Shown: one piece after another, positions 1 to 37,081 of the stretch | Position numbering within the stretch: position 1 is the first letter of the stretch | Layout of the letters: every line of letters starts with the position of its first letter | Assembly: GCA_052390515.1 (NCBI GenBank) | Contig: JBQTGV010000058.1 | Span: 1 to 64,000 of the forward strand | DNA length: 64,000 nt | Reading direction: 5' to 3' | From: Candidatus Eiseniibacteriota bacterium | GTDB taxonomy: Bacteria > ARS69 | Position numbers and translations under genes: made by a program | Notes under the pieces: model-generated | Seen by the model: only the letters and a program-made list of their open reading frames with translations | Databases searched by the model: none | Told to the model about the DNA's origin: nothing

Positions 1-164
1 GGGGCCCGCCGGCCCCCGCCGGCTCCCCCCCCCTCTCCGCCCAACCACCACGCGGGCTGCGAACCTACCACGCGGCCGGCCCGTGTCCGCGCCGCGACCG
101 AGGGGGGTATGGAGGGGCGAGGGCGAGGAGGTCGGCGCGGGATCGCGTAGAATCGGGGACGCCG

Positions 165-14472: not shown

Positions 14473-16695
14473 ATGCGCTGGATCGGTTCCTCGAAGGGTA
14501 GTGCGTCCGTTTCGCTCGTTGCGGCGGCAACGTGGCTCGCTATGGCCTCGCCTGCGCGCGCGGCCTCGGACTGGAACATCTTCCTCGGCGCCGAAGCGAC
14601 GCTCGACACCGGCGGGATCGTCCGCGGCATCGTGACCGACGGCCCCTACACGTTCGTGGCGAATGACACGGACTTTCGCATCTACGATCACGGTGACCCC
14701 GGCAATCCGGTGCAGATCGGCGGGCTACCGATCGCCGCGCAGGCGGTGGCGTACCGCGCCGCCAGCGGTTGGCTCGTCGTGGCCGACGTGACGAGCGTGC
14801 ACCTCGCGGACGTGTCGAACCCCGCGGCCCCGGCCGTCTTCGACACGCAGCCGGTCCTGGGTGGCGTATCGAACCTGCAGTTCTCCGACGACGGGCTGTT
14901 CGTGCTCGGGGCGGGCGGCAACAACGTCCACCGGTGGGACGTGGATTCGTTCGGCCTGTTCAACCTGCAGACGATGACGCTTCCCGTGGCCACGACGGAT
15001 CTCGACGTCAGCGGCAACCTCGCCGCGGTCGGCACCACGCAGGGACTCACGATGCTCGACCTAAGCAACCTCACCATTCTCGATGAGGTCCTTGACTCGT
15101 CCTACGACTGGGCGTGGGTGAGCCCCCAATTCTTTACTGGGGCAGGATCGAGCGGCGGCATCAACTTCTACAACGCGACCGTTCCGACCCAGCTATCACT
15201 CGTCCAGACGATCGAACCGGGTACGACCTTCAACCTCGTGGATATGGCGCAGAACGGCGTGCTCGCGGCCGCCGACGCCGGGTTCGGCCTTCTCCGCACG
15301 TACGACGTCCAAGATCCATTCGCTCCGGTTCAGCTCGGCTCGGCGAGGCTGCCCGGCGTCACGGAGCAGCTCGTCGCCTCTAACGACGGGCGCGTCGTCG
15401 CCGGCGCGGGTTCAGGACTCGTAATAATCCACGCCTCGGGCCCGGACGGCCTTGATCTGGAGGGCACCCTGAGCCTCGGCGCGTCGCCCACCTCCGCTGT
15501 GCACGACCCCACGAATCGGCTCCTGCATGTCGGGTCGAGCGACGGTACCATCATCACCTTCGACACCACGGACCCCGCGAACCCCACGACCGTCGGGACG
15601 TTCTCGACGGGCCAGTTCATCCTCGAGCTCAGCAAGGTCGCGAATGCCTTGTACGTGCGTAACTTCAATGGGCTGCTCGCGCTCGACTACACGAATGCGG
15701 TCACTCCCTTTCTCATAAGGAGCTTCACGGGCCTCACCGGCGACATCGACGCCGACGGCGACCGCCTCGTGCGTGCTCGGACTGACGTGCCCATCGTGGA
15801 GATCTTCCACGGCGCCGATGCTCCGCTCACCGTCGGCATACAGACCGTTTCGGTCTCCGGTTTCGCCCAGGCCATCGACCTTCGCGGGACGGAGATCCTG
15901 GCCGCCGTCGGGGCGGCAGGCATCCGGCACATCGACTTCACGAGCGGGGTGGTCATGACGACGTATCCTGCGTATCCCTTCATGAGCGACGTCGACTTCC
16001 TCGGATCCGTCTCCGGGACTGATTACGCGACTTGGGCGAACGGCGCCCGGAGCTACTACTTCGACCTGAGCAGCGGCGTGGAGATCGACCTAATGGACCT
16101 CCATGCGTTCGTGTCCGCATGGGCCGCGTCTCTTCCTGGCGCTCTTCCTGGCGCTCTGCGCAGCGCCGGTGCCACGCCGGTATACCTCTACGGAACGTCG
16201 CCGCAGGGTTCGATCTTCGTGCTCGACGTGACCGATCCGTCGGATGTGTCCTTCGTGGGCGAGTACACGCAGCCGGGATTCACGCCGCAGTTCGCCGTTC
16301 CTTCGGACGAGGTCGTGTACGTCGGGGACAATTCCGCAGGCGGCCGGCTGGTGATCCTTCCGGCCCACGCGGCCGGCAGCGCGACGGGCGCCGCGGACGT
16401 GGCCGTGCCGGCTGCATCGGGAAACCTGCTCGGCGCGGCTTGGCCGAACCCGTTCGCCGCCTCGACGACCGTTCCTTTCACGGTGAGGCGGACCTCGGTG
16501 GTGAATCTCTCGGTCTTCGACGTGACCGGGCGGCTCGTGAGGACGCTCGCTTCAGGCGGTTTCTCCGCCGGCGAGCACGTCACGTCCTGGGACGGCCAGG
16601 ACGGCTCGGGACGGCCGGCGGCCGCCGGCGTCTACTTCGTCCGCCTCGATGCGGGCGAGGACGCCGCGACTCGCCGGATCGTCCGGCTGCGGTGA
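14473..16695 (+). CDS. Secreted LVIVD-like beta-propeller protein with FlgD-Ig/T9SS-like C-terminal domain
   Basis: Signal peptide; repeats such as DVSNPAAP, DVQDPFAPVQLG, DVTDPSDVSFVG; C-terminal 'PNPF...VFDVTGRLVRTL...WDGQDGSG...AGVYFVRL'. Confidence 0.8.
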   Translation: MRWIGSSKGSASVSLVAAATWLAMASPARAASDWNIFLGAEATLDTGGIVRGIVTDGPYTFVANDTDFRIYDHGDPGNPVQIGGLPIAAQAVAYRAASGWLVVADVTSVHLADVSNPAAPAVFDTQPVLGGVSNLQFSDDGLFVLGAGGNNVHRWDVDSFGLFNLQTMTLPVATTDLDVSGNLAAVGTTQGLTMLDLSNLTILDEVLDSSYDWAWVSPQFFTGAGSSGGINFYNATVPTQLSLVQTIEPGTTFNLVDMAQNGVLAAADAGFGLLRTYDVQDPFAPVQLGSARLPGVTEQLVASNDGRVVAGAGSGLVIIHASGPDGLDLEGTLSLGASPTSAVHDPTNRLLHVGSSDGTIITFDTTDPANPTTVGTFSTGQFILELSKVANALYVRNFNGLLALDYTNAVTPFLIRSFTGLTGDIDADGDRLVRARTDVPIVEIFHGADAPLTVGIQTVSVSGFAQAIDLRGTEILAAVGAAGIRHIDFTSGVVMTTYPAYPFMSDVDFLGSVSGTDYATWANGARSYYFDLSSGVEIDLMDLHAFVSAWAASLPGALPGALRSAGATPVYLYGTSPQGSIFVLDVTDPSDVSFVGEYTQPGFTPQFAVPSDEVVYVGDNSAGGRLVILPAHAAGSATGAADVAVPAASGNLLGAAWPNPFAASTTVPFTVRRTSVVNLSVFDVTGRLVRTLASGGFSAGEHVTSWDGQDGSGRPAAAGVYFVRLDAGEDAATRRIVRLR

Positions 16696-16699
16696 TCCA

Positions 16700-18373
16700 T
16701 CAGCGCGCCGCGTGTCTGAGCGTCAGCTCGTGGAGCCAGATGCGGCCCGGCGCCGCGTCGGCCAGCATCCGCGCGGTGGCGAAGACGTCGTCACCGGGAT
16801 GAGACTCGGCGGGGGCTGGCAGCCGCGCCAGCGAGGTGATGCCGCGGTAGAGATCGACGCCGGAGCCGGGGGGAAGCGGCACGGCGAGCGCCCCCGGCGC
16901 GGGACGAGGCAGCCGCTCCAGCGCGCGTTCGAACTCGCGGAGCGGCGCTTCGGCCGCGACGACGAGGAAGCGCTCGGTGCCGCCCTCGGTGCCGACGACC
17001 CAGCCGAGCGGCTCGGCCCGGCCGGCGAAGCTGCCGGGGAGGTCGACTTCGCGGCCGGCGCTCACCGGATTCGAGAGGGTGAGCCCCGGCAGCGGGAAGA
17101 GCAACGCGAGCGCCCCGCGGTCGTCGGCATTCAGCACGTACACGTGGCAGTCGCGGGCCGGGTCGAGGCGAAGGTGCAGCACGTCGCCGACGCGCACCGG
17201 ATCTCCGGAGACGAGCGGCTCCCATGCGGACGCGCGCAGCCAGCGAGCGTCGGCGACCAGCGCGGGTGGCGGTGTGGCTTCGCCGCGAAGCAGCACGAAG
17301 GCGACCGCGACGGCAACCGCGGCGACGCCGGCCGCGGCGACGAGCCGCACCGGCCGCGCCGTGGCCCGCACGAGCGCCCCCCCGAGCTCCCGCGCGGTGG
17401 CGAAGCGCGCCACGGACATGGGAGAAACCGCTCGCTCGATCGTCGCCGCGAGGCGCGGGGGGAAGTCCGCGCGGGCGCCGCGCAGCGAGAGACGCCGCCC
17501 CGCGGCGTGCGCTTCGAGCAGGGCGTGGCGCGTGTCGCCCTCCACGGGGAACCGGCCGGTGGCCAGGTGGAAGAGCAGCACGCCGAGCGAGTACACGTCA
17601 TCGCGCGGCGAAGGGGCGGTGCCGCCGGAGAGCGCCTCGGGCGGCGCGTACAGCGGGGTGAGCGCCGCGCGTTCGCCGCCGGATCCGCGCCCGCGTGAGC
17701 CCGCGCCGAAGTCCACGAGCACGACGCGCCCGTCCGCGCGCTTGGACACGTTCTGCGCCTTCACGTCACCGTGCACGAGGTCCCGGGCGTGAACCGCGTC
17801 GAGCGCCGCGCACAGCTCCCGGCCGATCCGCGCGACCTCGCGGGGGGGCAGCGGCCCCTCCCGCCGGAGCACCGCGTCGAGCCCCGAGCCCTCCACGAAC
17901 TCCATCCAGATTCCGGGGCGGCCGTCGCGCGTGGCCGCCCCGTACACGCGGGCCACGCCCGGATGATCCACCTGCGCGAGCAGACGCGCCTCCTCGAGTA
18001 TCCGCTCCGCGGCGCCGGAACTGCCGTCGTCCCGCAGCAGCTTGAGCGCCGCGGGCCGGTTCAGCGCCGGATCCCACGCGCGATAGACGTCGCCGAACGC
18101 GCCTTCGCCCACCTTCTCGAGGATGCGAAGCTCGCCCCACGACGCCGGCTGCGCGGCTGCAGCGTCCGGCCCCATGGATGCCGCGCCGGCGACCGACCCG
18201 GCGGCGGCGGCGCCTCCGGGGCCGCGGTGGAACTCGCTCAGCCTGGACAGCGCGATGAGGTTCGCCACCACCGCCGAGCGCGAGCCCTCACCGAACCCGG
18301 AGGCGTCGGGCACTGCCCGTCCCTCGGCGATCGCATCGGCCAGGCGTTCGACCTCCTCCTCGTCACTCCGCAT
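16700..18373 (-). CDS. Ser/Thr kinase with TM segment and extracytoplasmic DUF4384-like domain
   Basis: VGEGAFGDVY, ALK, HGDVKAQN, DFG; TM AAAGVAAVAVAVAFVLL; 'VRVGDVLHLRL...HVYVLN...LLFP...GTERFLVVAA' DUF4384-type pattern. Confidence 0.88.
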   Translation of the reverse strand: MRSDEEEVERLADAIAEGRAVPDASGFGEGSRSAVVANLIALSRLSEFHRGPGGAAAAGSVAGAASMGPDAAAAQPASWGELRILEKVGEGAFGDVYRAWDPALNRPAALKLLRDDGSSGAAERILEEARLLAQVDHPGVARVYGAATRDGRPGIWMEFVEGSGLDAVLRREGPLPPREVARIGRELCAALDAVHARDLVHGDVKAQNVSKRADGRVVLVDFGAGSRGRGSGGERAALTPLYAPPEALSGGTAPSPRDDVYSLGVLLFHLATGRFPVEGDTRHALLEAHAAGRRLSLRGARADFPPRLAATIERAVSPMSVARFATARELGGALVRATARPVRLVAAAGVAAVAVAVAFVLLRGEATPPPALVADARWLRASAWEPLVSGDPVRVGDVLHLRLDPARDCHVYVLNADDRGALALLFPLPGLTLSNPVSAGREVDLPGSFAGRAEPLGWVVGTEGGTERFLVVAAEAPLREFERALERLPRPAPGALAVPLPPGSGVDLYRGITSLARLPAPAESHPGDDVFATARMLADAAPGRIWLHELTLRHAAR

Positions 18374-18926
18374 CGCCCATCTCCTCGGCCAGGCGGATCA
18401 GCGCCCGCTTCACCTTCATTCGTGCCGCGTGCGCCGACGCGCTGCCCAGCAGGTCCGCGATCTCGTCGTACTCGCAGTGCATCTCGATCCGCGCCACGAC
18501 AGCCTCCCGGTCGGAGTCCGAGAGCCGTTCGAGCGCCGCTTCGTAGCGCTCCAGGGTCTCCTTCCCGATCACCTCCGCGAGCGGAGAGGCGGCCGGCGGC
18601 GGAGGCTGGACCTCGCCGAGCGCGCGTTCGCCGACGTCCCGCCGGCGGATCTGGTCCCGGATCCGGTTCGTCACCGCCTGACGCAGGTAGGCGAAGAACG
18701 CCCCGCTTCCATCCGGCCGGAACGACTGCAAGTGCCGCAGCGACTGCACCACCGCGTCCTGCACGACGTCCTCGGTGTCGAGCAGGGACCGTGCACTGCC
18801 CGGCAGACGGCCTGTCGCCCAGCGAGTGAGCCGCGGCACCAGCCTCCGGCACAGGCTGTCCAGCGCCTGATCGTCTCCGGACTTCGCCCGATTCAGCAGG
18901 AGCGAGGTCGTCTCCCCGGTCTTCAT
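18363..18926 (-). CDS. ECF sigma-70 family sigma factor (kinase-associated), paralogue of 165..767
   Basis: 'LTRWATGRLP...DTEDVVQD...FFAYLRQAVTNRIRD'; region 4 'LERLSDSDREAV...YDEIA'; overlaps the kinase start. Confidence 0.9.
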   Translation of the reverse strand: MKTGETTSLLLNRAKSGDDQALDSLCRRLVPRLTRWATGRLPGSARSLLDTEDVVQDAVVQSLRHLQSFRPDGSGAFFAYLRQAVTNRIRDQIRRRDVGERALGEVQPPPPAASPLAEVIGKETLERYEAALERLSDSDREAVVARIEMHCEYDEIADLLGSASAHAARMKVKRALIRLAEEMGDAE

Positions 18927-18975
18927 GCCCGGAATCCTAGCACCGAGCGCCGGAGGGATCGTCCCGGATCCACTC

Positions 18976-19006
18976 CCAGAACGAGCGAGGCGGCGCGAAT
19001 TCACAC
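18976..19006 (-). promoter_or_regulatory. Putative ECF promoter facing the ECF gene (autoregulatory)
   Basis: Minus strand reads GTGTGAAT-N15-CGTTCTGG, with the same boxes and spacing as the plus-strand copy. Confidence 0.7.
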
Positions 19007-19013
19007 CGCCGGC

Positions 19014-19044
19014 GTGTGAATCCGGAGGGAGCTCTTCGTTCTGG
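19014..19044 (+). promoter_or_regulatory. Putative ECF promoter facing the small protein-S8-CHAT operon
   Basis: GTGTGAAT-N15-CGTTCTGG; the CGT-type -10 box is typical of ECF promoters. Confidence 0.7.
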
Positions 19045-19123
19045 AGTTGTTCCCCGGCGGGGGTCGCCGAGACTGGCCACGGCGGCCGCCGCCTCCCTAC
19101 CACGCACCACCGGGAGACTCGAA

Positions 19124-19651
19124 ATGTACAGGACGCGAATCGCCGCTCTCGCTCTCTCCACCCTGATGGCCGCCGGCACGGTTCCGGCGCAACCCACCGA
19201 GCCCACGCCGGCCACGGCGCGGGAGGTCACGAGCGCGGAGGTGGACGAGGCCGCCGCGCGCCCGCTCCCGCTGTACGGACCGATCCAGGCGAAGGACCCG
19301 CTGGTGCGCGCCGAGATCAAGCGACTGTATCTCGAGCGCGGCCGCGTCGCCGCGGACACGCAGACGAAGGTCGCCGAGCTCGGCGCGCGGATGGCCGCTG
19401 AGCGAGATCCGGACTTTCGCTTCGAGATGAGCCGAGAGATCGGTCAGCTCAAGCGTCACGCCGAGCGCCGCGGCATGGAGATCGGACTGGAGATCGCGCG
19501 GCTCAACGGCGACGCCGAGCGCGTGGCCGAGTTCGAGGCCGCATTGGATCAACTGCTGAACCCGGATCGGTATCTGCCGGCTCCCGTCGACCCGTCGCTG
19601 CAGGCGGAGCGGATCCGCCGCCTTTCGACCGACGTGGAGGTGGGACGATGA
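19124..19651 (+). CDS. Small secreted helical hypothetical protein
   Basis: ATG 19124 after GGGAG; signal peptide MYRTRIAALALSTLMAAGTVPA; ATGA overlap with the S8 gene. Confidence 0.7.
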   Translation: MYRTRIAALALSTLMAAGTVPAQPTEPTPATAREVTSAEVDEAAARPLPLYGPIQAKDPLVRAEIKRLYLERGRVAADTQTKVAELGARMAAERDPDFRFEMSREIGQLKRHAERRGMEIGLEIARLNGDAERVAEFEAALDQLLNPDRYLPAPVDPSLQAERIRRLSTDVEVGR

Positions 19652-22600
19652 AGCCGTCCGCCCTGTTGCTCGCCGCCCTTCCCGTCCTGGCTCTCTCGCC
19701 GGACTCGCGGGCGATGGACTTCGCCGAGAGACGCGGCGACTTCTGGTACGACTCCGAGGGAACGCTGGTCGCCGCGCGCCACGCGGAATGGCCCGAAGGC
19801 GTGGAGCGGCGGCCCATGAGCCACCGCGAGAAGATGCAGATGCTCGGGCTGCAGCTCCCCGCCCCGGGCCTGCGCGCGCTGAAGCCGCGGGCAGTGCCGA
19901 TGAAGCACGAGCGCGTGCACCTGTACCCCGAGCTGCAGGAACACGTCGTCATCGTGAAGTTCCGGGACGACACCCCGGTTCGGCTTCGCGGCGGCGCACT
20001 GACTTCCTTCGGCCGCGCCGCGGGCGCCGCGCAGACGGTGCTCGCCGCGTATCCCGATGGACGCCTGGAGCGCGGATTCTCGGTCGAGGAGCGCATCCTC
20101 GACGAAAACCGCGAGACGGGGCAGCTCCTTTCCGGCAAGGAGCTCGCCGACCTCAACAACTACTACGTCGTGCGCTTCCCAGAGGGGTCGCGGCGCGGCA
20201 TCGACGTGGCCAACGAGCTGCTCGCGCTGGACGAGGTCGAGACTGCGTACCTGGAGGCGCCACAGTCCGATCCGTCCTGCGCCGACATCCTCCCCGTCAC
20301 CGGGACGTGGGAGACGTTCCAGAACTACCTCGATCCCGCGCCGGCCGGGCTCGACTCCGAGTTCGCCTGGGCGTACCACGCCGGAGGTGACGGCTTCGGC
20401 TCAGGTTACTGGGTGATGGACTGTGAGCGCACCTGGACCTTCGACCACGAGGATCTGAACTTCTCGGCCAGTGACGTCGTGAACGGAGTGACCGGAGCCT
20501 GGTACAGCGACCACGGCACCGCGGTGGTGGGCGAGTACGGCGCCTGCGACAACGGCTACGGGATGACCGGCATGACGCCGGACGTCGCGCTCAAAGCGAT
20601 GGACCACAACACCGAACCGACGTTCGCCGCCGGGGTGGCCGTGGCCGACGCCTGGCTCGTGGCCGGAGAGATCATGCTCCTGGAGTCCCAGCTGGCGGGT
20701 CCGCCTTCCGGCGGGATCTGCCCCTGCAACTGCCCCGACTTCGACTCCGTTCCCGTCGAGTACGATGCGATGACGTTCGCCGCGATTCAGACGGCGACGG
20801 CCAACGGCATCATCGTCGTGGAAGCCGGTGCGAACGGCTCCGCGAACCTCGACAACATTGGCCTGTACGGGAACCTCTTCCAGCTCTGGTTCCGGGACTC
20901 CGGCGCCATCCTGGTCGGTGCGTCGGATCTCACCCACGCGCCCATGTGCTTCACCAGCACCGGCAGCCGGATCGACGTGCACGCGTACGGAACGTCGGTC
21001 TACTCGACCGGCTACGGCGACCAGTGGAGCGGGTCCTTCCTCGACAAGAAGCAAGACTACACCGCGAGCTTCAACGGCACGTCGAGCGCATCGCCCATGA
21101 TCGTGGGCGCCTGCGCGTCCCTGCAGGGAATCGCCAAGGCGAAGTACGGAGTCACGCTGACCCCCGCGCAGATGCGCAGCGTGATCAAGTTGGGCGGAAC
21201 ACCGCAGCTCCCGGGCGGGAACATCGGCCCCATGCCGAACCTTGCGGCGGCGATCAATGTGCTGGAGCCGGATCTGCGCGAGTACCAACCCGTCGGCTGG
21301 AGCTACCCCATCGTGCCGCGCTCGACCGCGGACGCGACCAGCGTGAGCGCGGTGCTTCCCACCGGTGCTCTCCCGGGGAATGGCGCCAGCACCTACTACA
21401 ACTTCGCGCTGCAGAACTCCGCCGGGTCGTACACCCCGGCGGTGAACTCGCCCGACTCACGCCTCCACCTGGAGGACACGCCGATCTGGGAGGTCGTCGA
21501 TACGAACCTCGCACCGGGGGCGTGGGGCTGGGCGGTGAACCTGCCCACCGTCACCAAGGGCGGACGCCACTCGCTCACCTTGATCGTCGACTACGCCGGC
21601 GTGGAGTCCGAGTCCAACGAGGGGAACAACGCGTGGCGCCGCCAGTTCATCTGGTCGGGCCTCGGCCTGATCGAGGACGTACCTCTGACGCGCACCGCCG
21701 ACCCCATCGCGCTGGGCGCGAATTACGCGGGACCCTGGTACAACGCCGAGGGTGTCCACGGCTCCACCGGAACGACCTACTGGCACGCGTTCGCCGTGGC
21801 GCCGACCCTGGCCAGCGACGACTTCGACGTCCGCCTCAACACCGAGGTCCCCGCCAACGTCCCGCAGGCCGGGTTCGGCGCGCACGTGGCCTGGTCCTCC
21901 GAGCCCGCCGGGATGGTCGACTTCGTGGTGCTGGACCGCAACCAGGTGGGGGCCGGCACCTTCTACGCGAGCCTCGTGAACTTCAGCGGCAGCGGCTCCA
22001 AGATCGTCGAGTTCGAGTCGGACGACGGAGCGCTGGCCCCCGGAGTCCATGGCCCGTACACGATCCAAGCGGGCGACCTCGTTGACGTTCACGAGGTCTT
22101 CCTGAACACCGGCCAGGAGTACCGCGTCCACGTCGAGGTGCTCTCGGGGCTCGCGGACATCGGCATCTCCGTGTTCGATGGTACGGGCGGCTTCTTCGAC
22201 AAGACGGCAACGATGCCGGGCGGTTTCGGCGATGCCGCCGGGCCCGGGCAGGACGAGTACGCCGTCGTGGCTCCCGCCGCGAACGACTTCTACGGGGCGG
22301 TCGTGTGGAAGCGCGGGTCGGCGGACGTCAGCCAGTCGCTGACCTACAACCTTCACGTGAGCGTCCTCCCCAACTTGGTGGGAAGCCGCGCGCCCTCCGG
22401 CTGGGACCGACCCATCGTGCCGCGGAACACTCGAGATGCGGTGTTCCTCGTCGATCTCCCCGCCATGCTGAACGGCAACGCGGCCACCACGTCGTTCAAC
22501 TGGGCGACGTACAACGAGGGGGCGAATCAGGCTCCAGGGCCGTGGCGGACCGATCTGTTCGTGGACGACGTGTTGCGGCTGACGTCGACGGCGGCGGGTT

Positions 22601-23790
22601 CGCTGAATTCCGGGGCGTACTACGCGGTGATGAATTCGGTGCAGAGCACGGTGACCGGCGGCAGACATCACCTGCGCTCCTCGGCCGACGTGCTGGCGCA
22701 GCTCACCGAGTTCGACGAGGCGGACAACGCGCGGACGGAGGCCTTCGTGTGGTCGCCGCTGAGCCTGACGGACGGAGTGCCGGTCACGCGCGCGGCCCCA
22801 CCCCGGAAGGACCCGCTCGGGTACGGTCCCTGGTGGTCGGTGGACGGCCTTCGCGCCGCGCCAACCACATACTGGACCGCCGTCGGCATCGTGCCGGTGA
22901 ACGCGGCGGACACCTACGACCTGCGGATGCACGACGCCTCGACCGGCAGCGAGGACGGCTTCGCGGCGCCCCGGATCTGGTCGTACGACGGCTCCGGTGA
23001 TTGCGTTTTCGCGCTGACGAACTACAACCTGGAACCGCTGGGCGCGAAGGACTACGGCATCCTGAACTGGAGCGGCACCGGGAACGTGGCGGCGCAGCGC
23101 TCGGATGCACCGATCCTCGCAGGGTACTCGGGCGGCGTGGTCCGGTACGGACCGTACTCGCTGGGCGCCGGCACGATCCTCGCCGCCTACGAGTTCTACC
23201 TGGATCCGCTCGCCGCCGGGACGCCCCTGCACGTCTCCGTGAACGCTACCGCGGGGACCGCGAACCTCGTCGTGGCGATCTTCGACGGGCAGGGCGCTCC
23301 CGCATACGGGAAGTACGATGCGCTCGCCCTGGTGGACGCGGCCGGCGGCGGCGCGGACGAGCACCTGCCGCCGTTGACGCTGTCCCCGGGCTTCTACGCC
23401 GTCGTCGTGCACAAGCGCGGCTCGGCGGACCTGCCGCTCACGGCGAACTTCGATCTCGTGCTCTCGGGCGCGAACGTGGTGGGCGTCGAGGAAGCGCAGT
23501 TCGTTCCGTCGACGTTCGCCCTGGCCGCGCCGCGGCCGAACCCGGTTCGGGACGCGGTGACGCTGGAGTTCGACGTGCCCGCCGGTGGCGAGCCCGTTCG
23601 CCTCGGGGTCTTCGACCTGATGGGGCGGCAGGTGGCCACCCTGGCCGACGGTTCGGTGGCGGCCGGCCGGCACGCCATCTCGTGGAACGGACGGTCCTCG
23701 ACCGGTGAGCGCACCGCCGCGGGCGTGTACTTCGTGCGCCTGGACGCGCCATCCGGGTCGTGGACACGCAAGGTCACGCTGTTGCGCTAG
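19648..23790 (+). CDS. Secreted S8 (subtilisin-family) serine peptidase with duplicated CARDB-like modules and FlgD-Ig/T9SS-like CTD
   Basis: Triad motifs VMDCE, DHGTAVVG, FNGTSSASP; oxyanion region EAGANG; C-terminal 'PNP...VFDLMGRQV...AGVYFVRL'. Confidence 0.9.
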   Translation: MKPSALLLAALPVLALSPDSRAMDFAERRGDFWYDSEGTLVAARHAEWPEGVERRPMSHREKMQMLGLQLPAPGLRALKPRAVPMKHERVHLYPELQEHVVIVKFRDDTPVRLRGGALTSFGRAAGAAQTVLAAYPDGRLERGFSVEERILDENRETGQLLSGKELADLNNYYVVRFPEGSRRGIDVANELLALDEVETAYLEAPQSDPSCADILPVTGTWETFQNYLDPAPAGLDSEFAWAYHAGGDGFGSGYWVMDCERTWTFDHEDLNFSASDVVNGVTGAWYSDHGTAVVGEYGACDNGYGMTGMTPDVALKAMDHNTEPTFAAGVAVADAWLVAGEIMLLESQLAGPPSGGICPCNCPDFDSVPVEYDAMTFAAIQTATANGIIVVEAGANGSANLDNIGLYGNLFQLWFRDSGAILVGASDLTHAPMCFTSTGSRIDVHAYGTSVYSTGYGDQWSGSFLDKKQDYTASFNGTSSASPMIVGACASLQGIAKAKYGVTLTPAQMRSVIKLGGTPQLPGGNIGPMPNLAAAINVLEPDLREYQPVGWSYPIVPRSTADATSVSAVLPTGALPGNGASTYYNFALQNSAGSYTPAVNSPDSRLHLEDTPIWEVVDTNLAPGAWGWAVNLPTVTKGGRHSLTLIVDYAGVESESNEGNNAWRRQFIWSGLGLIEDVPLTRTADPIALGANYAGPWYNAEGVHGSTGTTYWHAFAVAPTLASDDFDVRLNTEVPANVPQAGFGAHVAWSSEPAGMVDFVVLDRNQVGAGTFYASLVNFSGSGSKIVEFESDDGALAPGVHGPYTIQAGDLVDVHEVFLNTGQEYRVHVEVLSGLADIGISVFDGTGGFFDKTATMPGGFGDAAGPGQDEYAVVAPAANDFYGAVVWKRGSADVSQSLTYNLHVSVLPNLVGSRAPSGWDRPIVPRNTRDAVFLVDLPAMLNGNAATTSFNWATYNEGANQAPGPWRTDLFVDDVLRLTSTAAGSLNSGAYYAVMNSVQSTVTGGRHHLRSSADVLAQLTEFDEADNARTEAFVWSPLSLTDGVPVTRAAPPRKDPLGYGPWWSVDGLRAAPTTYWTAVGIVPVNAADTYDLRMHDASTGSEDGFAAPRIWSYDGSGDCVFALTNYNLEPLGAKDYGILNWSGTGNVAAQRSDAPILAGYSGGVVRYGPYSLGAGTILAAYEFYLDPLAAGTPLHVSVNATAGTANLVVAIFDGQGAPAYGKYDALALVDAAGGGADEHLPPLTLSPGFYAVVVHKRGSADLPLTANFDLVLSGANVVGVEEAQFVPSTFALAAPRPNPVRDAVTLEFDVPAGGEPVRLGVFDLMGRQVATLADGSVAAGRHAISWNGRSSTGERTAAGVYFVRLDAPSGSWTRKVTLLR

Positions 23791-23854
23791 TCTGACGGAG
23801 GCGCGCCTTTACGCCGGGTGACGGCGCAGACTACCCTGCCCGCGGGAGGTGGCG

Positions 23855-26800
23855 ATGTTGGCAACCCACCCGCGGGCGGGGTTCGTCGGCGCCTTGCTGC
23901 TGCTCGCCGCGGCCGGCGCCACAGCCGAAGAGACCGACGACATCGAGGTGCTCCTCGAGACTCGGGATCTGGTGCGTGCCGAGGCGATCGCGCGGGAGAG
24001 GCTGGCCGCGGCCGAGGCCTCCGGTGACCGAACCGCTCAGGCCGGCGCCCGCGACGGCCTGATCCGTGTGCGGCTGCGCGCGCGAGACGTCGACGAGGAT
24101 CTCCTGGCCTTCGCCGAGGAGACGCTCGCCCGCAAGCGAGCGCTGTTCGGTGCCGACCACTCCGAGGTGGCCACGAGCCTCTATCACCTCGGCGCGTGTC
24201 TGGATCTCGCCGGCCGTCCCGACGAAGGCAAGGCGCACATGGACGAAGCGCTGGCGATGCGACGCCGCGTGCTCGGGGACCGCCACCCCGATGTCGCGAG
24301 GTCGCTCGCCGGGCTGGGCATCTACGAGTGGCGCAACGGCCGGCTCGCCGAGGCCGAGGCTCTCCTGGAACAGGCACTCGACATCCAGGACGAGGTACCC
24401 GCCACGGCCGGGGAGATCGTCGGCACGCTGCAGTTTTTGAGCCTCGTTCAGGCGAAGCTCGGCGAGATCGAGGAGGCGGTGGAGCGGGCGCGGCGCGCCG
24501 TCTTCATCCGAGAGGACCTTCACGGCGCCGGGCATCCGCGAACCGCGGAGGCGCTCCACAACCTGGGAGCGGTGTACTCCGAGGCCGCCGCTCTGCAGGA
24601 CGCGCTCGCCACGGAGCTGCGCGCGGCCGCCGCGCTGGAAGGCGCCGCGACGCACTGGGACTGGCTCCGCGCGCCCGTCTTCAACAACCTGGCCAACTTC
24701 GAGGGATCGCTCGGGAACTTCCCAGCCGCGCGCTCCTGGGCCGAGCGCTCCGTGGACCTGCTCGAACGAATGTACGGAGCAGACAGCGCCGACTACGCGT
24801 TCGGGCTGAACAGCCTCGGGCTCCAGCAGCTCGTCATGGGCGATCTGGACTCGGCGCGGCGCGCCTTCGAGCGCGTGCTGGCCGTCTACGAGGCCACGCT
24901 TCCGGCCGACCACCGCTGGACCCTGCTGGTCCTCACCGATCTCGCTTCGGTGGAGCATCGCAGCGGCAACTTCGCGAGGGCGGTCGAGCTGCTGGAGAGG
25001 GCGGTGCCAGGGATCCAGGAAGAGTTCGGCGACGGCGGCGACGCGGCCTTCGCGTGGGGGAGCCTCGGGGAGGCGCGCCTCGCGGCCGGTGACGTGAACG
25101 GGGCGATCGCCGCGCTCGAGAGGTCCCGCACCATGATCGAGGGCGTCTCCGGCCCGGAGAGCGCCGACCTGCCGCGCGTACTCGGGCTGCTGGCGCGCGC
25201 CCACACCCGGAACGGCAACCGGGAGGCCGCCGAGCTCTTCCACGTGCGGTGCCTGGACCTGAGCGCGCAAGCCAGCGGCGAGGACTCCATCCTCTACGAG
25301 AGCGAGCTGCGCGTGTACGCGCGCTTTCTGTTCGAAGGCGGCGAGATGGAGCGCGCCTTCGAGGCGGCCCTTCGCGCCGACGAGCTGTCCCGGAATCACG
25401 TGCGCATCAACGTGCGCGGTCTCGCGGAGCGCGAAGCGCTCGCGTTCCTGGGCACCCGCTCGCGCGGGACCGACGTGCTGATGGCCGTGGTCGAGAGCGA
25501 AGCGTCGGACCGAATCGATCCCAGGGTGGAGTCGGCCTGGGACGCCGTGATCCGTTCGCGGTGCCTCGTGCTCGACGAGATGATCGAGCGCAACCGCGCG
25601 GTGGTCGGGACCGAGGATGCCGGCGTCGCCGCCGTCCGAGCGAGATATCGCGAAGCGGGCGAACGTCTCGCCGGGCTCTGGCTCTCGCAGTCCGCCGGCG
25701 GCGCGAGCCGCGAGGAAGTCGACGCGGCACGTGCGGAACTGGAGCAGTCCGAGCGCGCGCTCGCCGACGCCAGCGCATCGTTCCGAGATGCTGCGTCGCA
25801 GTCGCGGGCGGGGTTCGCGGAGGTGCGCTCCGGGCGGCCCGCGCGCTCGGCCGTCGTCGCCTACGCGAGGTACGACGCGCCCCTCCCTGGTGGATTCGAG
25901 GCGGAGACGCGCTACTTCGCCTTCGTCCTGCCAGCCGACGGCATGGCTCCGCGCGCGGTCTCGCTCGGACCTGCGGATCAGATCGATGGTCTCGTGAGGA
26001 CGTGGCGCGCCACCCTGGTCGCCGGCGAGTCCGCCGCCCGCGAGGCCGGCTCACGCCTGCGAGAATCCGTCTGGGATCCGGTGGCTCCGCTCGTGGGCGA
26101 AGCACCCGATCTCGTGCTGGTCGTGCTCGACGGCGCGTTGCACGAGGTCTCGCTGGCGGCGCTGCCGGATGGGGACGGCGGCTACCTCGTCGAGACGGGG
26201 CCGACCTTCCACCACTTGAGCTCCGAGCGCGACGCCGCGCGCGTCGCCGCCGAGACGACCGGCCGCGGACTGCTGGTCGTCGGCGGGGCGGATTACGACG
26301 CGGATCCGCGAGGCGGCGGGGCCGAGCTCGCGGCGGCCGGCCCGGCTCCGGGCGTCGCCGTCTTCCGCGGCGCGCACGCGGACTGTCGCGGATTCGCCGA
26401 GCACCGCTTCGAGCAGCTCCCCGCCACCTCACGGGAGGCGCGCGACGTCGCGACGCTCTGGGGACCCGACGCCGCGTTGCTGGAAGGGGACGCGGCCACG
26501 GAAGCGGCCTTCCGCGCCCACGCTCCGGGTCGCCGCGTCCTGCACCTGGCGACTCACGGCTTCTTCCTCGGCGGGGACTGCCGCACGGCAGCGTCCGGAG
26601 AGCGCGGCGTGACTGGCGTCGTGCCGCTGGGCGATGCCCCCTCGGCAGGACCGCCGCTGGCCGAACTGCACCCGCTGCTCGCGTCCGGAGTGGCGCTAGC
26701 CGGCGCGAACCGCCGCGCTCGGGTCGCGGCCGGAGAGGACGACGGGATCCTGACGGCGCAGGAGATCGGCGCGCTGGATCTCGGCGGCGTGGAGTGGGCC

Positions 26801-27100
26801 GTACTTTCGGCGTGCGACACCGGGATCGGCCGCGTGGCGGCGGAGGAAGGGGTGCTCGGTCTACAGCGCGCGTTCGCGGTGGCCGGGGCGAGGACCGTGC
26901 TCATGACGCTCTGGCCGGTGAAGGACGAGGACGCGCACGCGTGGATGAGCGCACTCTACGCGCGGCGCGCAGCCGGGGCCGGCACGGCCGAGGCCGTGCG
27001 CGCGTCGAGCCTGCAGTTCCTGAGGCAGCTTCGCGAGCGCGGCGAGGACGCCAGTCCCGCGCGGTGGGGCGGGCTCGTCGCCGTGGGGGACTGGCGGTAA
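23855..27100 (+). CDS. Signal-peptide TPR-CHAT (caspase-like, clan CD) protease
   Basis: Signal peptide; TPRs 'LG..HP.VA.SL..L'; intact dyad motifs LHLATHGF and VLSACDTG; DDGILTAQEI, LWPVKD, PARWGG; ATG after GGGAGG. Confidence 0.9.
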   Translation: MLATHPRAGFVGALLLLAAAGATAEETDDIEVLLETRDLVRAEAIARERLAAAEASGDRTAQAGARDGLIRVRLRARDVDEDLLAFAEETLARKRALFGADHSEVATSLYHLGACLDLAGRPDEGKAHMDEALAMRRRVLGDRHPDVARSLAGLGIYEWRNGRLAEAEALLEQALDIQDEVPATAGEIVGTLQFLSLVQAKLGEIEEAVERARRAVFIREDLHGAGHPRTAEALHNLGAVYSEAAALQDALATELRAAAALEGAATHWDWLRAPVFNNLANFEGSLGNFPAARSWAERSVDLLERMYGADSADYAFGLNSLGLQQLVMGDLDSARRAFERVLAVYEATLPADHRWTLLVLTDLASVEHRSGNFARAVELLERAVPGIQEEFGDGGDAAFAWGSLGEARLAAGDVNGAIAALERSRTMIEGVSGPESADLPRVLGLLARAHTRNGNREAAELFHVRCLDLSAQASGEDSILYESELRVYARFLFEGGEMERAFEAALRADELSRNHVRINVRGLAEREALAFLGTRSRGTDVLMAVVESEASDRIDPRVESAWDAVIRSRCLVLDEMIERNRAVVGTEDAGVAAVRARYREAGERLAGLWLSQSAGGASREEVDAARAELEQSERALADASASFRDAASQSRAGFAEVRSGRPARSAVVAYARYDAPLPGGFEAETRYFAFVLPADGMAPRAVSLGPADQIDGLVRTWRATLVAGESAAREAGSRLRESVWDPVAPLVGEAPDLVLVVLDGALHEVSLAALPDGDGGYLVETGPTFHHLSSERDAARVAAETTGRGLLVVGGADYDADPRGGGAELAAAGPAPGVAVFRGAHADCRGFAEHRFEQLPATSREARDVATLWGPDAALLEGDAATEAAFRAHAPGRRVLHLATHGFFLGGDCRTAASGERGVTGVVPLGDAPSAGPPLAELHPLLASGVALAGANRRARVAAGEDDGILTAQEIGALDLGGVEWAVLSACDTGIGRVAAEEGVLGLQRAFAVAGARTVLMTLWPVKDEDAHAWMSALYARRAAGAGTAEAVRASSLQFLRQLRERGEDASPARWGGLVAVGDWR

Positions 27101-27118
27101 GCGCCGGGGGTCTCGACA

Positions 27119-27150
27119 CGAAGGAGCCGGAGCTGCTGCCGGCTCCTTCG
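27119..27150. terminator. Hairpin between convergent genes (probable bidirectional terminator)
   Basis: Perfect 12-bp inverted repeat CGAAGGAGCCGG / CCGGCTCCTTCG with 8-nt loop; no clear U-tract. Confidence 0.55.
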
Positions 27151-27161
27151 CGAGCATCGAG

Positions 27162-29358
27162 TCATCGGCGGACGACCAGCTTCCGAGTCACCACGTCGAC
27201 ACCTGCCTGGAGACGACACCAGTACACACCGGAGGGTAGCCCGTCCGAGACGAAGCTCAGGCGGTGCTCGCCGGTACCGAGCCACTTGTCTTCGATCGGG
27301 GTCGATACCCGGCGCCCGGCGACATCGAACACGTCCACTCGAACGCGCGCAGCAGCCGGGAGCGCGAAGCGGACCTCGGTCCCGAGCTCGAAGGGGTTGG
27401 GCGCGCTCTCCAGGGCGATCCGTGAGCCGGACTCCTGGAGGTAAGCCCGCACGCCGGTCGTGGCGGACGGATCGGTCAGTGGCGCAGTGGTCCTCGTCGA
27501 CGTTTTGATCACCGCGAAGTTGGCCCGTGGAATCCCGCCGACACCCACAAAGGAGCCGCTTGCGCACACGCTCGAGCCGCTCACTACGAGCGCGTGCACA
27601 ACGGATGAGATTCCGCCAAGAGCTTGCGCGCCCGGATTCCACGCGGTGGCCGCGCCGGTCACGGCGTCGAGCGCGGCGATGTTCTCACGCGGCCGGCCAC
27701 CGATTGCGTCGAACCGTCCGCCCACGTATACGATCGATCCGCTCACCGCGAGCGCGGAAACCCGCGTGGACGGACCCGTGGCGACGGGGTCCCACGCCGT
27801 GGCCGCTCCCGTACCGGCGTCCAATGCCGCGAGTCGGCTGCGCGTCTGGCCCCCGATGCTCGTGAAGGTGCCGCCCGCGTACACCGTCGCACCGCTCACC
27901 GCGAGCGCGCTGACCACAGAGTCTGGATCGGCTCTCCAGCTTGTGGCGGAGCCGGTAACTGCATGGAGCGCGGCTAGGTGGCTCCGTGGCTGGCTGCCCG
28001 CTTGCGTGAATAGCCCACCCGCGTACACGGTCGAGTCGCTGACCGCGAGCGCCAAGACGGTGCTGTCGGCGCCCGGATCCCAGCTCGTCGCGGAGCCGGT
28101 GGCGGCGTCGAGCGCCGCGAGGTGAGCCCGTTGCTGGCCGCTGATGCTGGTGAAGTGACCGCCGACGTAGACCGTCGAGCCGACTACCGCGAGTGCCGAG
28201 ACGATGTTGTCAGCACCCGGATCCCAGCTCGTGGCGGCGCCGGTCTCGACGTCGAGGGCCGCGATGTTGTTACGCGGTTCGCCGCCGACGCTGTTGAAGG
28301 AGCCTCCGGCGTATACCGTCGTGCCGGTCGCTGCGAGCGCCAGTACGAAGCTGTCGGCATGGGGGCTCCAAGTCGTTGCAGCACCGGTCGCGGAGTCGAG
28401 CGCGGCGATGTTGCTGCGCGGCTGGCCGCCCGTCGTCGTGAAGCGCCCTCCCACGTAAACCGTCGAGCCGCTCACCGCTATCGCGTGGACCACGCCGTCG
28501 GCGCCCGGGTTCCAGGTCGTGGCCAGGCCGCTAGTGGTGCTGATCGCGGCGATGCTCTTTCGCGGCTGGCCACCGATGCTGCTGAAGCCGCCGCCCACGT
28601 ACACCGTCGAGCCACTGACGGCGAGTGCCCGGGGAAGCGGCGGGGGCCATGCGGAGGCCGCGGGATTTCAGGGGTTGACCGCACCAGTCGATGCGTCGAT
28701 CGCGGCGATGCCGTTGCGCAACTGGCCACCAAGCTTGGTGAAGTAGCCGCCGACGTACAACGTCGACCCGCTCACCGCGAGAGCGGTGACGTACCCCCCG
28801 CTAGTGTCAAGGTTCCAAGTGAACGAGTAGCCTTGAGTGTCTAGTGCGACGAGGTTCCGGTGTGCGTACCCCGCGATGGTGTCGAAGAACCCGCCGGCGA
28901 ACACGATCTGGCCGCGCACGGCGAGCGCCATGACCTCGCGGTTGGCCCCGGGTTCCAGTCCGTCGCCGAACCGGTGACGGCGTGCACCGCGGCGACGTTG
29001 CTGCGCAGCTGACCAGCGATGCTGGTGAAGAGCCGCCCACGTACACCGTCGCGCCGCTCACCGCCAGAGCGGAGACATGGCCGCCGCTGCCGACGCCCGG
29101 GTCCCAGGCCGAGACCGAGAGGTTCGAAGCGATGTGTGCGAGGCTCGCCCGAGGCACTCTGCCGACATGAGTGAGCTGGCCGCCGATGTACCACCCCCCG
29201 GACCCGTCGGGGACCACGGCGAACACGCTGCCCTCGACCTCCGGGAACGACGACGGCAGCAGTCCGCTGGACACGTCTATAGGCGCGCCACTTCCCGTAG
29301 CCGGTCCCACGTAGCTGAAACTCCCTCCCAAGTAGATTGTCTCCTCGCTTGCGGCGAC
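27162..29358 (-). pseudogene. Disrupted paralogue of the 6880..9267 beta-propeller/CTD protein
   Basis: Homology starts abruptly at VAASEETIYLGGSFSYVGP with no signal peptide; 1-nt deletions near 29031 and 28947; in-frame TGA at 28668-28670 replaces the W of a WNP repeat; CTD intact. Confidence 0.85.
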
Positions 29359-30861
29359 CGGCTCGGCGAGGGGGCATTCGGCGAAGTGTTCCGTGCCTGG
29401 GACCCGAGGCTCGAGCGCGAGGTCGCCCTCAAGCTCCTCAAGGCTGCCGGCGGGAAGAGCCCGATCGCCTCGAACGTGATCGCCGAAGGCCGGCTGCTCG
29501 CCAAGCTTCGCCACCCGAACGTCGTCACCGTCCACGGCGCTGAGGTCCACGGCGAACGGGTCGGCGTCTGGATGGAGTTCGTCCGCGGGCGCTCGCTCGA
29601 GCAGATCCTCCGCGACCACGGGCCTTTCGGCGCGCGGGAGGCGGGGCTCATCGGCATCGACGTCTGCCGCGCGCTGGCGGCGGTGCACCGGGCCGGCGTC
29701 ATTCACCGCGACGTCAAAGCACAGAATGCGATGCGCGAGGAAGGCGGACGCATCGTGCTGATGGACTTCGGCGCGGGAATCGAGGCGAGCGACGCCGAGA
29801 GCACGAGGAACATCTCCGGCACGCCGCTCTACATGGCGCCCGAGCTGCTTCGTGGAGAGACGGCGACGACGCGTTCGGACATCTACAGCCTGGGCGTGCT
29901 GCTTCACCGCCTGGTCAGCGGAACGTTTCCGATCGAGGCCTCTTCCTGGAGCGAGCTCCGCCAGAAGCACGCGCGGCGGGAATCGAGACTGCTGCGCGAC
30001 GAGCGCCCCGATCTACCGGAGGCGTTCGTGCGGGTGGTGGAGCGTGCCACCGCCTGGGTGCCCGAGGAGCGTTTCGCAACGGCTGGAGAGATGCAGCGCG
30101 CCTTGTCGCAGGCGCTCGGTGTCGAGGAGCACCGCGCTCGGCGGCCTCCCGGAACCCGGGTCATCGCCGGCGGCGCCGTGCTCGTGTCCGCCGCCGTCGT
30201 CGCCGTGCTGCTGATGACGGGAGACAGACAGGATCGGACGACGACACCGACCCTGAACGAGAAGTCCGCCGCCCCCGCCGAACCCGAGGTCCCCGCGGCC
30301 TACACCGTCGAGGCGGGACTCTTCCGCGCACCGCGGGGCGGCGTGCGGGAGCGCATCGAGCCCGGGGCCCAGCTGGCGCTGGGAGACCGGCTCTCCCTCG
30401 AGATCCAGGCGTCGACGCCGCTCCACGTCTACGTCATCAACGAGGACGACGCCGGACGCGCCTTCGCCCTCTTCCCGCTGCCCGGGATCGAGCCGGGGAA
30501 TCCGCTGCCGCCGAACGTGCGGCACGTGCTGCCAGGACAGCGCGACGGGAAGAGCATGTCGTGGACCGTGGACACGCCGGGCGGCCAGGAGCACCTGATG
30601 GTGCTGGCCAGCCCCACCCGGCTGATCGAGTTCGAGGTGGAGATGAACGGCTTGGCCCGTCCCGGTCAGTCGGCGGTTTCGATCCCCGAGTCGGCGAAGA
30701 GCCGGCTGCGAGGTATCGGATCTCTCGAGGAGTCGCCCGCGGCGGTAGAGGGCCAGCCGGCGACTCGCCTCTTCGAGCTCGTCGAGCAGCTCGCCGCCGG
30801 CTCGGAAACGGTCCGCGGCGTCTGGATGCGACGCATCGACCTGGCGAACCCCCAGCGATAG
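29356..30861 (+). pseudogene. 5'-truncated Ser/Thr kinase-TM-DUF4384, paralogue of 16700..18373
   Basis: Kinase homology begins at DRLGEGAFGEVFRAWDP with no in-frame start nearby; upstream DNA is the antisense of the propeller gene; HRDVKAQN, DFG, GTPLYMAPE and DUF4384 are intact. Confidence 0.75.
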
Positions 30862-35600: not shown

Positions 35601-37081
35601 AACGACTCCCATGTGGGGAACTCGTGCAGCTGCCTGCCGTCCCGTGCGTCGTACACGCGAATCGGTGCGATTCGACCGCCGGCAGCGCGCGCCGCGACGA
35701 GGCGTCCGTCCTCGCTGAGGCGCATGCAGTAACCGTTCTTCGTCGGAGGCAGCTCCAGCGTGGTGGCCAAGCTTCGATCCGCCTCGCTCCAGAGCCACTC
35801 CCACTCGAATCCCCGCAGCTCCTCGGAGGTCGACGCGAGGTGCCGGCGCACCGCGGCGGCGTCGTTGAGATCCAGCGCCGCCGCCGCCGCCGCGAGCGAC
35901 GCGGTGTACACGCGGAACTCGGCCTCCCGGCGCGCCGCCTCAGCGCGAAAGAACAGGATCGTGCTCACGATCGTCGCCGCGACGAGAACCAGGAGCACGA
36001 GTGCCGACGCGGCCACTCCCACGCGATGTCGCCGCACGAACTTCTTCGCCAGATACGCGGGACTGGGAGGAGCCGCCATCACCGGGCGGTGATCGAGGTG
36101 CCGCTGGATGTCCGCCGCCAGCTCGCTGGCCGAGTCGTAGCGGCGCGTGCGGTCCTTCTCCAGCGCCTTCATCACGATCGCGTCCAGGTCGCCGCGAAGC
36201 TGGCGATGCAAGGTCATCGGATCCGTCCGGCGGCTCTCCGCGGTGCTCGTGGACTGCCGGCCGAGCGCGCGAATGCGCGTGCTGGGCTTCGCCGGATCCC
36301 GGTCGCGGATCGTCCGGCGCATCTCATCGGTTCCCTCCTTGCGAAGGGTCGCGGAGTCGAACGGAAGCTCTCCCACCAGGAGCACGTAGAGCAGCACGCC
36401 GAGCGAGTAGACGTCGGTGCGCGTGTCGACGTCGGCGCTCGTCGGCTCGGCCTGCTCGGGGCTCATGTACTCCAGCGTTCCCACCACCGCACCGAGCTCG
36501 GTATAGAGCGTACGCTCGGTGAGCCGCTGGTCGAACGCCTTGGCGAGACCGAAGTCGATGATCTTCGGCACCGGCTTGTCGTCCTGCGCGCGCACCAGCA
36601 CGTTCGAGGGCTTCAGGTCCCGGTGGATCACACCCTTCTGGTGAGCGTGCTGCACGCCTTCGCACACTCTCGTGAAGAGATCGAGGCGCTCGCGCATGGG
36701 GAGACGCTGCCGATCGCAGTAGTCGGTGATGGGCTCGCCGTCGACGTGCTCCATGGCGAAGAACGGCCGGCCCTGCTCGGTGGACCCCGCGTCGAAGACC
36801 CGGGCAATGCTGGGATGGTTCATCAGGGCGAGCGCCTGGCGCTCCGCATCGAACCGCGCGAGGACCGACGCGGTGTCCATGCCCGCCTTGATCAGCTTGA
36901 GCGCGACGCGCCGCCGGACGGGCCGCTCTTGCTGGGCGAGCCACACCTCGCCCATGCCGCCCTCGCCGATCTTCTGGAGGAGGTGGTAGGGGCCGATCGT
37001 CATCCGGGGTACGGCGGCACCCGGCATGGTGGGGAGCTGGCTCGGGTCCAGCGTGTCATCGGGGTGGTCGGCGTCGGCCAT
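32606..37081 (-). CDS. Ser/Thr kinase with TM segment, WD40 repeats and C-terminal TPRs
   Basis: [33 protein letters not shown]40 '[15 protein letters not shown]...DGTLREWD'; TPR tail. Confidence 0.92.

Follow-up and report, generated by a model that had tools for sequence, protein, structure and literature searches.

Two sensor kinases and a caspase-like protease

The DNA considered here is a stretch of 64,000 nucleotides (positions 1 to 64,000 of contig JBQTGV010000058.1, assembly GCA_052390515.1) from Candidatus Eiseniibacteriota bacterium, and this whole stretch is called the window in what follows. It encodes two membrane Ser/Thr kinases, located on either side of the gene for a caspase-like protease of the CHAT family, and the three proteins have a hexapeptide in common. 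A preliminary description of the window had seen in this hexapeptide the recognition site of the protease, present in the substrate and also, as a loop, in the enzyme itself. The homologues of the three genes show a conserved module in which the two partners carry co-varying versions of the motif, and we may take this as a start to ask what is likely to read it.

Kinase 1 (16700..18373, minus strand; 557 amino acids) is composed of a kinase domain, a single transmembrane helix (17288-17344) and a predicted periplasmic module, with a DUF4384 core (PF14326; 16946..17197, minus strand) followed by a C-terminal extension. The start of its gene is overlapped, as in an operon, by that of a sigma factor of the extracytoplasmic function (ECF) type (18363..19103, minus strand). 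This protein matches Sigma70_r2, Sigma70_r4_2 and Sigma70_ECF, and its best NCBIfam model is TIGR02984, with 79 bits, below the cut-off of 183.75. Kinase 2 (29077..30861, plus strand; 594 amino acids; start placed at 29167 in the database) follows the same plan, with its transmembrane helix at 30160-30216 and a DUF4384 core, again delimited by Pfam, at 30373..30618 (plus strand) within the predicted periplasmic module; an upstream ECF sigma gene is absent from its neighbourhood in the window. The two proteins are paralogues over their full length (38% identity). Their Pkinase profile scores are 123.6 bits for kinase 1 and 160.1 bits for kinase 2, and DFG is present in both. The catalytic loop of kinase 1 (17750-17780, minus strand) reads HGDVKAQN where that of kinase 2 reads HRDVKAQN, so that kinase 1 belongs with the non-RD kinases. 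Their DUF4384 domains (37.4 and 48.2 bits, respectively, for a cut-off of 27) are the only two matches to this family in the whole genome.

The protease gene (23849..27100, plus strand; database start 23855) lies within at most 6 kb of both kinase genes. Its product, P0003 (1083 amino acids), combines tetratricopeptide repeats (TPR) with a CHAT domain, both recognized by Pfam; the latter (PF12770, clan CD) spans residues 732-1081 with 191.3 bits, against a cut-off of 24. Judged by eye, with a charged start, a hydrophobic core and an A-x-A end, the N-terminus appears to be a Sec signal peptide (23855..23926, plus strand). This is the sole hydrophobic segment of the protein, and no match to zf-HC2 or to an anti-sigma domain was found in it. 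The catalytic residues are His903 (codon 26555..26557, plus strand) and Cys989 (26813..26815, plus strand), both invariant in a 78-row alignment of the CHAT subfamily. Past the histidine comes a disordered insert (26588..26662, plus strand; protein residues 914-938, residues 227-251 of the model discussed below) that holds the motif. Seven CHAT matches were found in the genome of the window, and this protein is the only one to have the insert after the histidine together with the motif. A second CHAT of the insert subfamily is located at a contig end (G000:C159:6-959, locus L008/L167), with a short loop devoid of the motif, and its counterpart in genome G009 is alike. Two cysteines flank the start of the insert in P0003, Cys846 (26384-26386, plus strand), invariant in the subfamily, and Cys911 (26579-26581, plus strand), conserved in at least 90% of its members; they may form a periplasmic disulfide.

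The hexapeptide observation itself is confirmed. The tail of kinase 2 has RGIGSL (residues 545-550; 30709..30726, plus strand) and the loop of the protease has RGVTGV (residues 919-924; 26603..26620, plus strand), which starts 16 residues after His903 and 70 before Cys989, hence shortly past the catalytic histidine, as had been described. In kinase 1 the motif is RGITSL (residues 510-515; 16829..16846), and here the strand, which the preliminary description had left unstated, matters: the plus strand gives QRGDAA, and the motif is read on the minus strand only. In the full-length alignment of the kinases the two motifs are in register, in agreement with the equivalent positions claimed for them. 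Over the six frames of the window, RG[IV][TG][SG][LV] matches just these three sites. In the genome as a whole, however, the pattern is found 25 times in open frames of at least 150 codons, for about 30 occurrences expected from composition. As the pattern is not enriched, a match between three sequences of one window is, taken alone, weak and post hoc, and it would suit chance or structural convergence, the hexapeptide being then a glycine-rich turn without a common reader. The case for a shared motif has to come from homologues.

Conservation, gene order and co-variation of the motif

A search started from the tail of kinase 2 collected 89 proteins, all of them combining kinase and DUF4384 domains except one, which has DUF4384 alone. 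In 88 homologues, a count that leaves out the window's own two kinases, the six columns of the motif hold R (88/88), G (83/88), I, V or L (84/88), G (81/88), G or S (74/88) and L (82/88). A leucine precedes the motif in 81 of the 88, and downstream a Pro/Ala-rich linker of variable length leads to a conserved helix-hairpin. The family is large: a profile search over 1.84 billion representatives, with clusters at 50% identity, found 717 clusters with an E-value of at most 1e-30, and among the matches listed all 141 new cluster representatives have a variant of the motif starting with R-[GSA]. We also gathered 106 related loci, 26 from genomes (labelled Eisenbacteria, Polarisedimenticolia or Krumholzibacteriia) and 80 from metagenomes; 97 of them fit the motif pattern, seven are variants and two are truncated. 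Every complete kinase tail examined has the motif after DUF4384, and the arginine is invariant over about 230 tails. The search reports a single in-frame TAG within the kinase-tail match of two related genomes (G013:C413:2905-3438 and G014:C3:548916-549449). The module made of DUF4384 and its tail is not restricted to kinases: with LRGIGGL or LRGIGEF, it is also found in a CadC/OmpR-type winged-helix regulator with a transmembrane helix (P0263), in a lipoprotein-like protein (P0271) and after a TPR segment (P0292).

The protease side tells a similar story. The 119 nearest homologues of the CHAT domain (47-53% identity) have in common an insert past the catalytic histidine that reads H-G-F-F-L-G-G-x-C-x-S-A followed by t-R-[GAS]-[IV]-G-G-L, with a variable linker of 19-38 residues between this and the next core strand, the motif beginning 13-18 residues past the catalytic HG. 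The strict hexapeptide is present in 77 of these 119 proteins, and its core, R[GAS][ILVMF][GA], in 82. Both families thus reach the consensus R-G-[IVL]-G-G-[LVM], with RG[IV]GGL as the common form, so that, on the evidence of these alignments, their match is closer than the three sequences of the window suggest. That the motif be conserved among homologues, which the preliminary description had left to be seen, holds in the two families alike. The resemblance stops at the motif: a 9-column profile of the kinase motif, extended by the preceding leucine and two following residues, recovered kinase 2 in the genome of the window and neither the CHAT loop nor kinase 1 above threshold, which shows that the flanks are not common to kinase and CHAT.

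To see how the two families are arranged, the loci were scanned with purpose-built profiles, one each for kinase tails, subfamily CHATs and the sigma factor of the window. In 66 of the 68 loci with at least 700 nucleotides of upstream sequence, the kinase gene is directly preceded by an ECF sigma gene. For 56 of the 106 loci the downstream sequence is too short to tell whether a CHAT gene is present. Among the 50 determinable loci, 33 have one, 28 of this subfamily and five of another type. The gene is immediately downstream and on the same strand for 20 of the 28; others lie 1-2.3 kb downstream, or ahead of the sigma gene in divergent orientation. An ECF sigma gene, then a Ser/Thr kinase with a transmembrane helix and DUF4384, then a TPR-CHAT with a signal peptide: this is a conserved module. 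In five genomes without a CHAT next to the kinase, subfamily CHATs are present elsewhere, with motif-bearing loops in four of the five. Among the 12 genomes of the window's phylum in the collection, kinase and subfamily CHAT occur together in eight and are both missing from three, and a single genome has the subfamily CHAT without the kinase (Fisher p = 0.018, for genomes that are kin and not independent). The S8 subtilase whose gene (19648-23790, plus strand) abuts that of the protease in the window was considered as a further member of the module and rejected, a homologue being present in just two of the 26 genome loci.

The core motif is present in all 28 kinase-adjacent subfamily CHATs, to be compared with the 82 of 119 unselected ones (p=1.6e-4), and the broad motif pattern differs as well (p about 2e-4). 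The five kinase-adjacent CHATs that belong to two other subfamilies have a short histidine loop, and yet each has exactly one RG[ILV]GG[LI], elsewhere in the protein: just ahead of the helix that opens the CHAT domain in three (L013, L015 and L051) and in the loop preceding the last strand, near the C-terminus, in the other two (L112 and L114). The background of this pattern is 2 per 1.04 million residues in coding-like frames of the window genome. Kept in the CHAT partner and yet placed in different flexible segments, the hexapeptide behaves as a short linear motif rather than as a part of the fold.

The motifs of cognate partners also follow each other, a point that the preliminary description had proposed to check. 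In 28 kinase/CHAT pairs from other loci (the pair of the window was left out), identities at positions 3-6 number 78, versus 63.0 when partners are shuffled (p<1e-5), and collapsing identical pairs leaves 21 pairs with p = 0.0013; position 6 co-varies (p = 6e-4). These values are optimistic, because shuffling ignores relatedness. Nonetheless, the matched rare variants are separate events: GEI is paired with GEI in L069, with glutamate at position 5 in both partners, alanine occupies position 4 in kinase and CHAT alike in L086 and L106, and L023 has glutamate matched with glutamine at position 5, and isoleucine at position 6 in both. At L149 and L151 (G003:C100 and G004:C21), where each genome has two paralogous kinases, the kinase with RGVGGV adjoins a CHAT with RGVGGV, and the kinase with RGIGGM is unlinked. 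The RGVTGV of the CHAT of the window is the tail motif of the kinase 1 orthologues of three relatives (RGVTGL is found in a fourth relative, and RGITSL in kinase 1 of the window), and threonine at position 4 is found in this CHAT and in the kinase 1 group, and in no other kinase or CHAT examined.

We can now return to chance or convergence. The lack of genome-wide enrichment and the failure of the 9-column profile to find the CHAT loops in the window genome are what one would expect of it; against it stand the same consensus in both families, conserved synteny, co-variation that extends to rare residues and the placement of the motif, independently, by other CHAT subfamilies in the face of so low a background. 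Conservation, synteny and co-variation among homologues bring the sharing of the motif beyond chance, and we hold a fortuitous likeness to be very improbable.

What may read the motif

The partners are likely to meet. Each kinase has one transmembrane helix, after the kinase domain, which makes the DUF4384 tail extracytoplasmic, and a signal-peptide-like N-terminus, again judged by eye, is present on the CHAT of the window and on nearly all kinase-adjacent CHATs. Kinase tail and CHAT are thus predicted to share the periplasm. The motif is also predicted to be exposed. In an AlphaFold2 model of the CHAT region with a mean predicted local distance difference test (pLDDT) of 85.8, the insert that holds the motif falls below 50. 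A model of the ecto-domain of kinase 2 (pLDDT 87.3) has the motif in its least confident stretch, with block means of 56, 60 and 75, followed by a confident helix and hairpin. In neither model is the motif buried, and the exposure implied by the preliminary description stands as far as models go. The fold predicted for the CHAT region is of the separase/craspase type, as Foldseek finds DdvA as its best match (8rot, E 8.7e-10), then Csx29, then separase, with E-values from 8.7e-10 to 1e-5. The DUF4384 module, by contrast, has no informative structural relative: Foldseek against the PDB gave no match at E <= 0.001 for the ecto-domain model, a profile search of PDB sequences none at E <= 1, and VIA-align in its wide setting returned generic immunoglobulin-like sandwiches only (best Z 7.2). 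A complex prediction for the CHAT region and the kinase 2 ecto-domain, run without controls, scored 0.00 and is uninformative either way.

What could it mean that a protease and a receptor tail have a motif in common? Substrate-like segments that sit in the active site, or are cut there, are familiar in other clan CD proteases, as witnessed by separase autocleavage, the securin pseudosubstrate and the linker of type II metacaspases. The segment of the CHAT subfamily differs from these loops in that it usually comes directly after the catalytic histidine and co-varies with the putative substrate. On balance we consider it probable, if far from assured, that R-G-[IVL]-G-G-[LVM] is what the CHAT protease recognizes, a short linear motif serving both for cleavage of the sensor tail and for the enzyme's own autoprocessing or pseudosubstrate loop. 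The motif would couple a cognate exported TPR-CHAT to a periplasmic sensor module, DUF4384 with its C-terminal extension, borne here by two membrane Ser/Thr kinases. Its most likely reader would be the active-site cleft of the CHAT domain, the most economical choice for a motif common to a protease and its conserved neighbour, and the conserved His-Cys dyad and the placement of the motif by the catalytic histidine speak for it. The exported TPR-CHAT would bind the sensor tail and cut it at the motif, while the copy beside the histidine of the enzyme would be either a site of activating autoprocessing or a pseudosubstrate that restrains it, and the cutting of the tail would alter the output of the kinase toward the co-encoded ECF sigma factor. 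Cleavage at the motif, the choice of bond and the link to sigma activation are what we infer from this arrangement. Two bonds are plausible by analogy with known enzymes: one after the invariant arginine, with a small residue next, as HetF would suggest from its action on PatU3, the other after the final Leu, Met or Val, as Csx29 acts on Csx30, in which case the shared residues would lie on the usual, non-prime side.

Several observations pull in the other direction and have to be set against this reading. To begin with gene content, 17 of the 50 determinable loci have no CHAT gene within 10 kb, and in the window neither kinase gene is in an operon with that of the CHAT, whose motif departs from each of theirs at three of six positions. 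The kinase 1 orthologues of related genomes, which have the matching motif, are without an adjacent CHAT, and no CHAT loop with threonine at position 4 was found among the loops parsed there. G006 is alone among the 12 genomes of the phylum in having a subfamily CHAT and no kinase, and this CHAT has lost the motif of the loop. About 31-35% of subfamily CHATs lack the motif and keep the His-Cys dyad, from which it follows that the motif is dispensable for the enzyme as such, and the strict hexapeptide, unlike its core, is no more frequent in kinase-adjacent CHATs (19/28) than in unselected ones (77/119). Within the motif, the 28-pair shuffle test detects no co-variation at position 3, and the residue preceding the arginine, leucine in most of the kinases, is variable in CHATs: what the two families conserve in common is found C-terminal to the arginine. 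An arginine at P1 would put these shared determinants on the prime side, an unusual arrangement in clan CD. Finally, AlphaFold2 draws the motif of the kinase (residues 148-153 of the ecto-domain model) as an edge beta-strand of an immunoglobulin-like sandwich, and this, with the invariance of the arginine, makes a structural role of the motif in the kinase possible.

This last observation leads to another way of seeing the motif, in which it is the DUF4384 module that reads it. The module would bind its own RGxGGL segment as an edge strand, and the loop of the CHAT would mimic this strand to dock or to exchange with the tail, the protease then cutting something else, or the sensor at another place. 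The modelled strand, at lower confidence than the rest of the domain, and an arginine kept in every tail agree with this; co-variation toward identical residues would be expected of two ligands that occupy one groove, and a motif found at three different sites of CHAT proteins looks like a portable docking peptide. The loss of the motif in G006 is accounted for no less readily by docking that depends on the kinase than by recognition by the protease. However, docking would leave the conserved His-Cys dyad without a role in the link, many motif-bearing CHATs are unlinked, with several per genome for each kinase, and the commonest placement of the motif is directly beside the catalytic histidine. 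All in all we find a docking strand unlikely, if clearly deserving of attention. Both copies might otherwise be read by a third component. Arrays of TPR are known to bind extended peptides, and the CHAT protein has one; another periplasmic protease could also be invoked, for example the S8 subtilase, whose gene immediately precedes the CHAT gene and has homologues in a few related loci. The rarity of the subtilase among the genome loci, where the conserved set is sigma factor, kinase and CHAT, goes against it, and we deem a third reader rather improbable.

The proposal that the hexapeptide is the CHAT recognition site, in the substrate and in a loop of the enzyme, is thus upheld in part: the motif is conserved, co-varying, exposed in models and located in the same predicted compartment on both partners, and the same data can be fitted by a docking strand.

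The surroundings of the module may be described in a few words. The window holds a dense set of large Ser/Thr kinases with fused TPR or WD40 arrays (754-3429, plus strand; 11126-13654, minus strand; 32606-37081, minus strand; and 37285-40053, plus strand), and the one at 11126-13654 bears a zf-HC2 anti-sigma zinc finger at its N-terminus. Ahead of another such kinase stands a second homologue of the ECF type of sigma factor (3-764, plus strand; E 2.9e-42 to the first). The S8 subtilase, which has a CARDB domain, and several beta-propeller proteins (14473-16695, plus strand; 27162-28604, minus strand; 6880-9267, minus strand) end in C-terminal domains similar to FlgD_ig or Por_Secre_tail, and are probably secreted.

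Relation to known systems

Where does this module stand among the proteases of its kind? The published accounts of type III-E CRISPR systems describe Csx29, a TPR-CHAT, as cutting Csx30 after a methionine (AVGM/K) in a loop of the C-terminal domain, and Csx30 as working with an ECF sigma factor (RpoE, or CASP-sigma), which the cut thereby controls, one group of Csx30 C-terminal domains being DUF4384. Our module resembles this Craspase in its TPR-CHAT, its DUF4384 partner module and its ECF sigma factor, and Csx29 ranks near the top of the Foldseek matches to the window's CHAT model. As to differences, the protease of the window has what appears by eye to be a signal peptide and would not be cytoplasmic, its partner is a Ser/Thr kinase and not Csx30, and the enzyme bears its own copy of the motif. 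Of 16 proteins scanned from 11126 to 37081, none matched a Cas family, and no search for Cas7-11 was made in other parts of the genome.

A second relative is DdvA of Myxococcus xanthus, which acts with the sigma factor DdvS. It is presented in its published description as a transmembrane anti-sigma factor with a periplasmic TPR-CHAT, for which autoproteolysis in trans at a flexible linker has been proposed; a single chain unites a zinc anti-sigma domain, a transmembrane helix and the TPR-CHAT, and three active-site helices are lacking. DdvA has in common with our module the association of an ECF sigma factor with a TPR-CHAT in the periplasm (predicted, in our case), and it comes first among the structural matches. 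In the window, by contrast, the protease is separate and exported, its membrane partner is a DUF4384 kinase, and a defined motif is shared between the two. In cyanobacteria, the CHAT protease HetF is described as cutting PatU3 after an essential arginine, between R117 and S118, and the R-[GAS] start of our motif resembles this site with its arginine followed by a small residue. HetF is cytoplasmic, however, and the accounts consulted report for it neither a motif shared with and borne by the enzyme nor a sigma or kinase context. On the side of regulation, the ECF43 and related groups of sigma factors (PknT-EcfP, PknS-EcfK) have, according to the literature on ECF classification, a sigma gene that adjoins that of a membrane Hanks-type kinase, held to phosphorylate the sigma factor directly. 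The overlap of the sigma gene with the start of kinase 1, and a pairing maintained in nearly all loci where it can be judged, recall this organization; the main text of the ECF classification paper makes no mention of CHAT. Literature searches on DUF4384, on the CHAT domain with an ECF sigma factor and a kinase, and on RGIGGL gave no description of the module or of the motif. It differs from all these systems in that it combines a separate exported protease, a kinase as partner (or, in P0263, a CadC-like regulator) and a co-varying hexapeptide in both.

We may tentatively go further, with rather less confidence than for recognition by the protease. The portable module of DUF4384 and its tail, attached to Ser/Thr kinases, to a CadC-like transcription factor or to a lipoprotein, could represent a widespread and so far undescribed class of protease-gated envelope receptors. 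A cognate exported TPR-CHAT would address the module through a co-evolving hexapeptide that is also its own lock or processing site, and variants of the hexapeptide would keep paralogous systems apart, the whole being a non-CRISPR relative of the Csx29-Csx30-RpoE circuit.

The interest of the module lies in the fact that few bacterial CHAT proteases have known substrates or recognition sites, HetF and Csx29 being examples, and that it offers a predicted enzyme-substrate pair, a site of six residues and natural variants of specificity. It ties together caspase-like proteases, Hanks-type kinases and ECF sigma factors, which are usually studied separately, and gives DUF4384 a first concrete functional context. 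It also suggests an origin for the circuit linking Csx30, DUF4384 and a sigma factor in Craspase, and for the anti-sigma factor DdvA.

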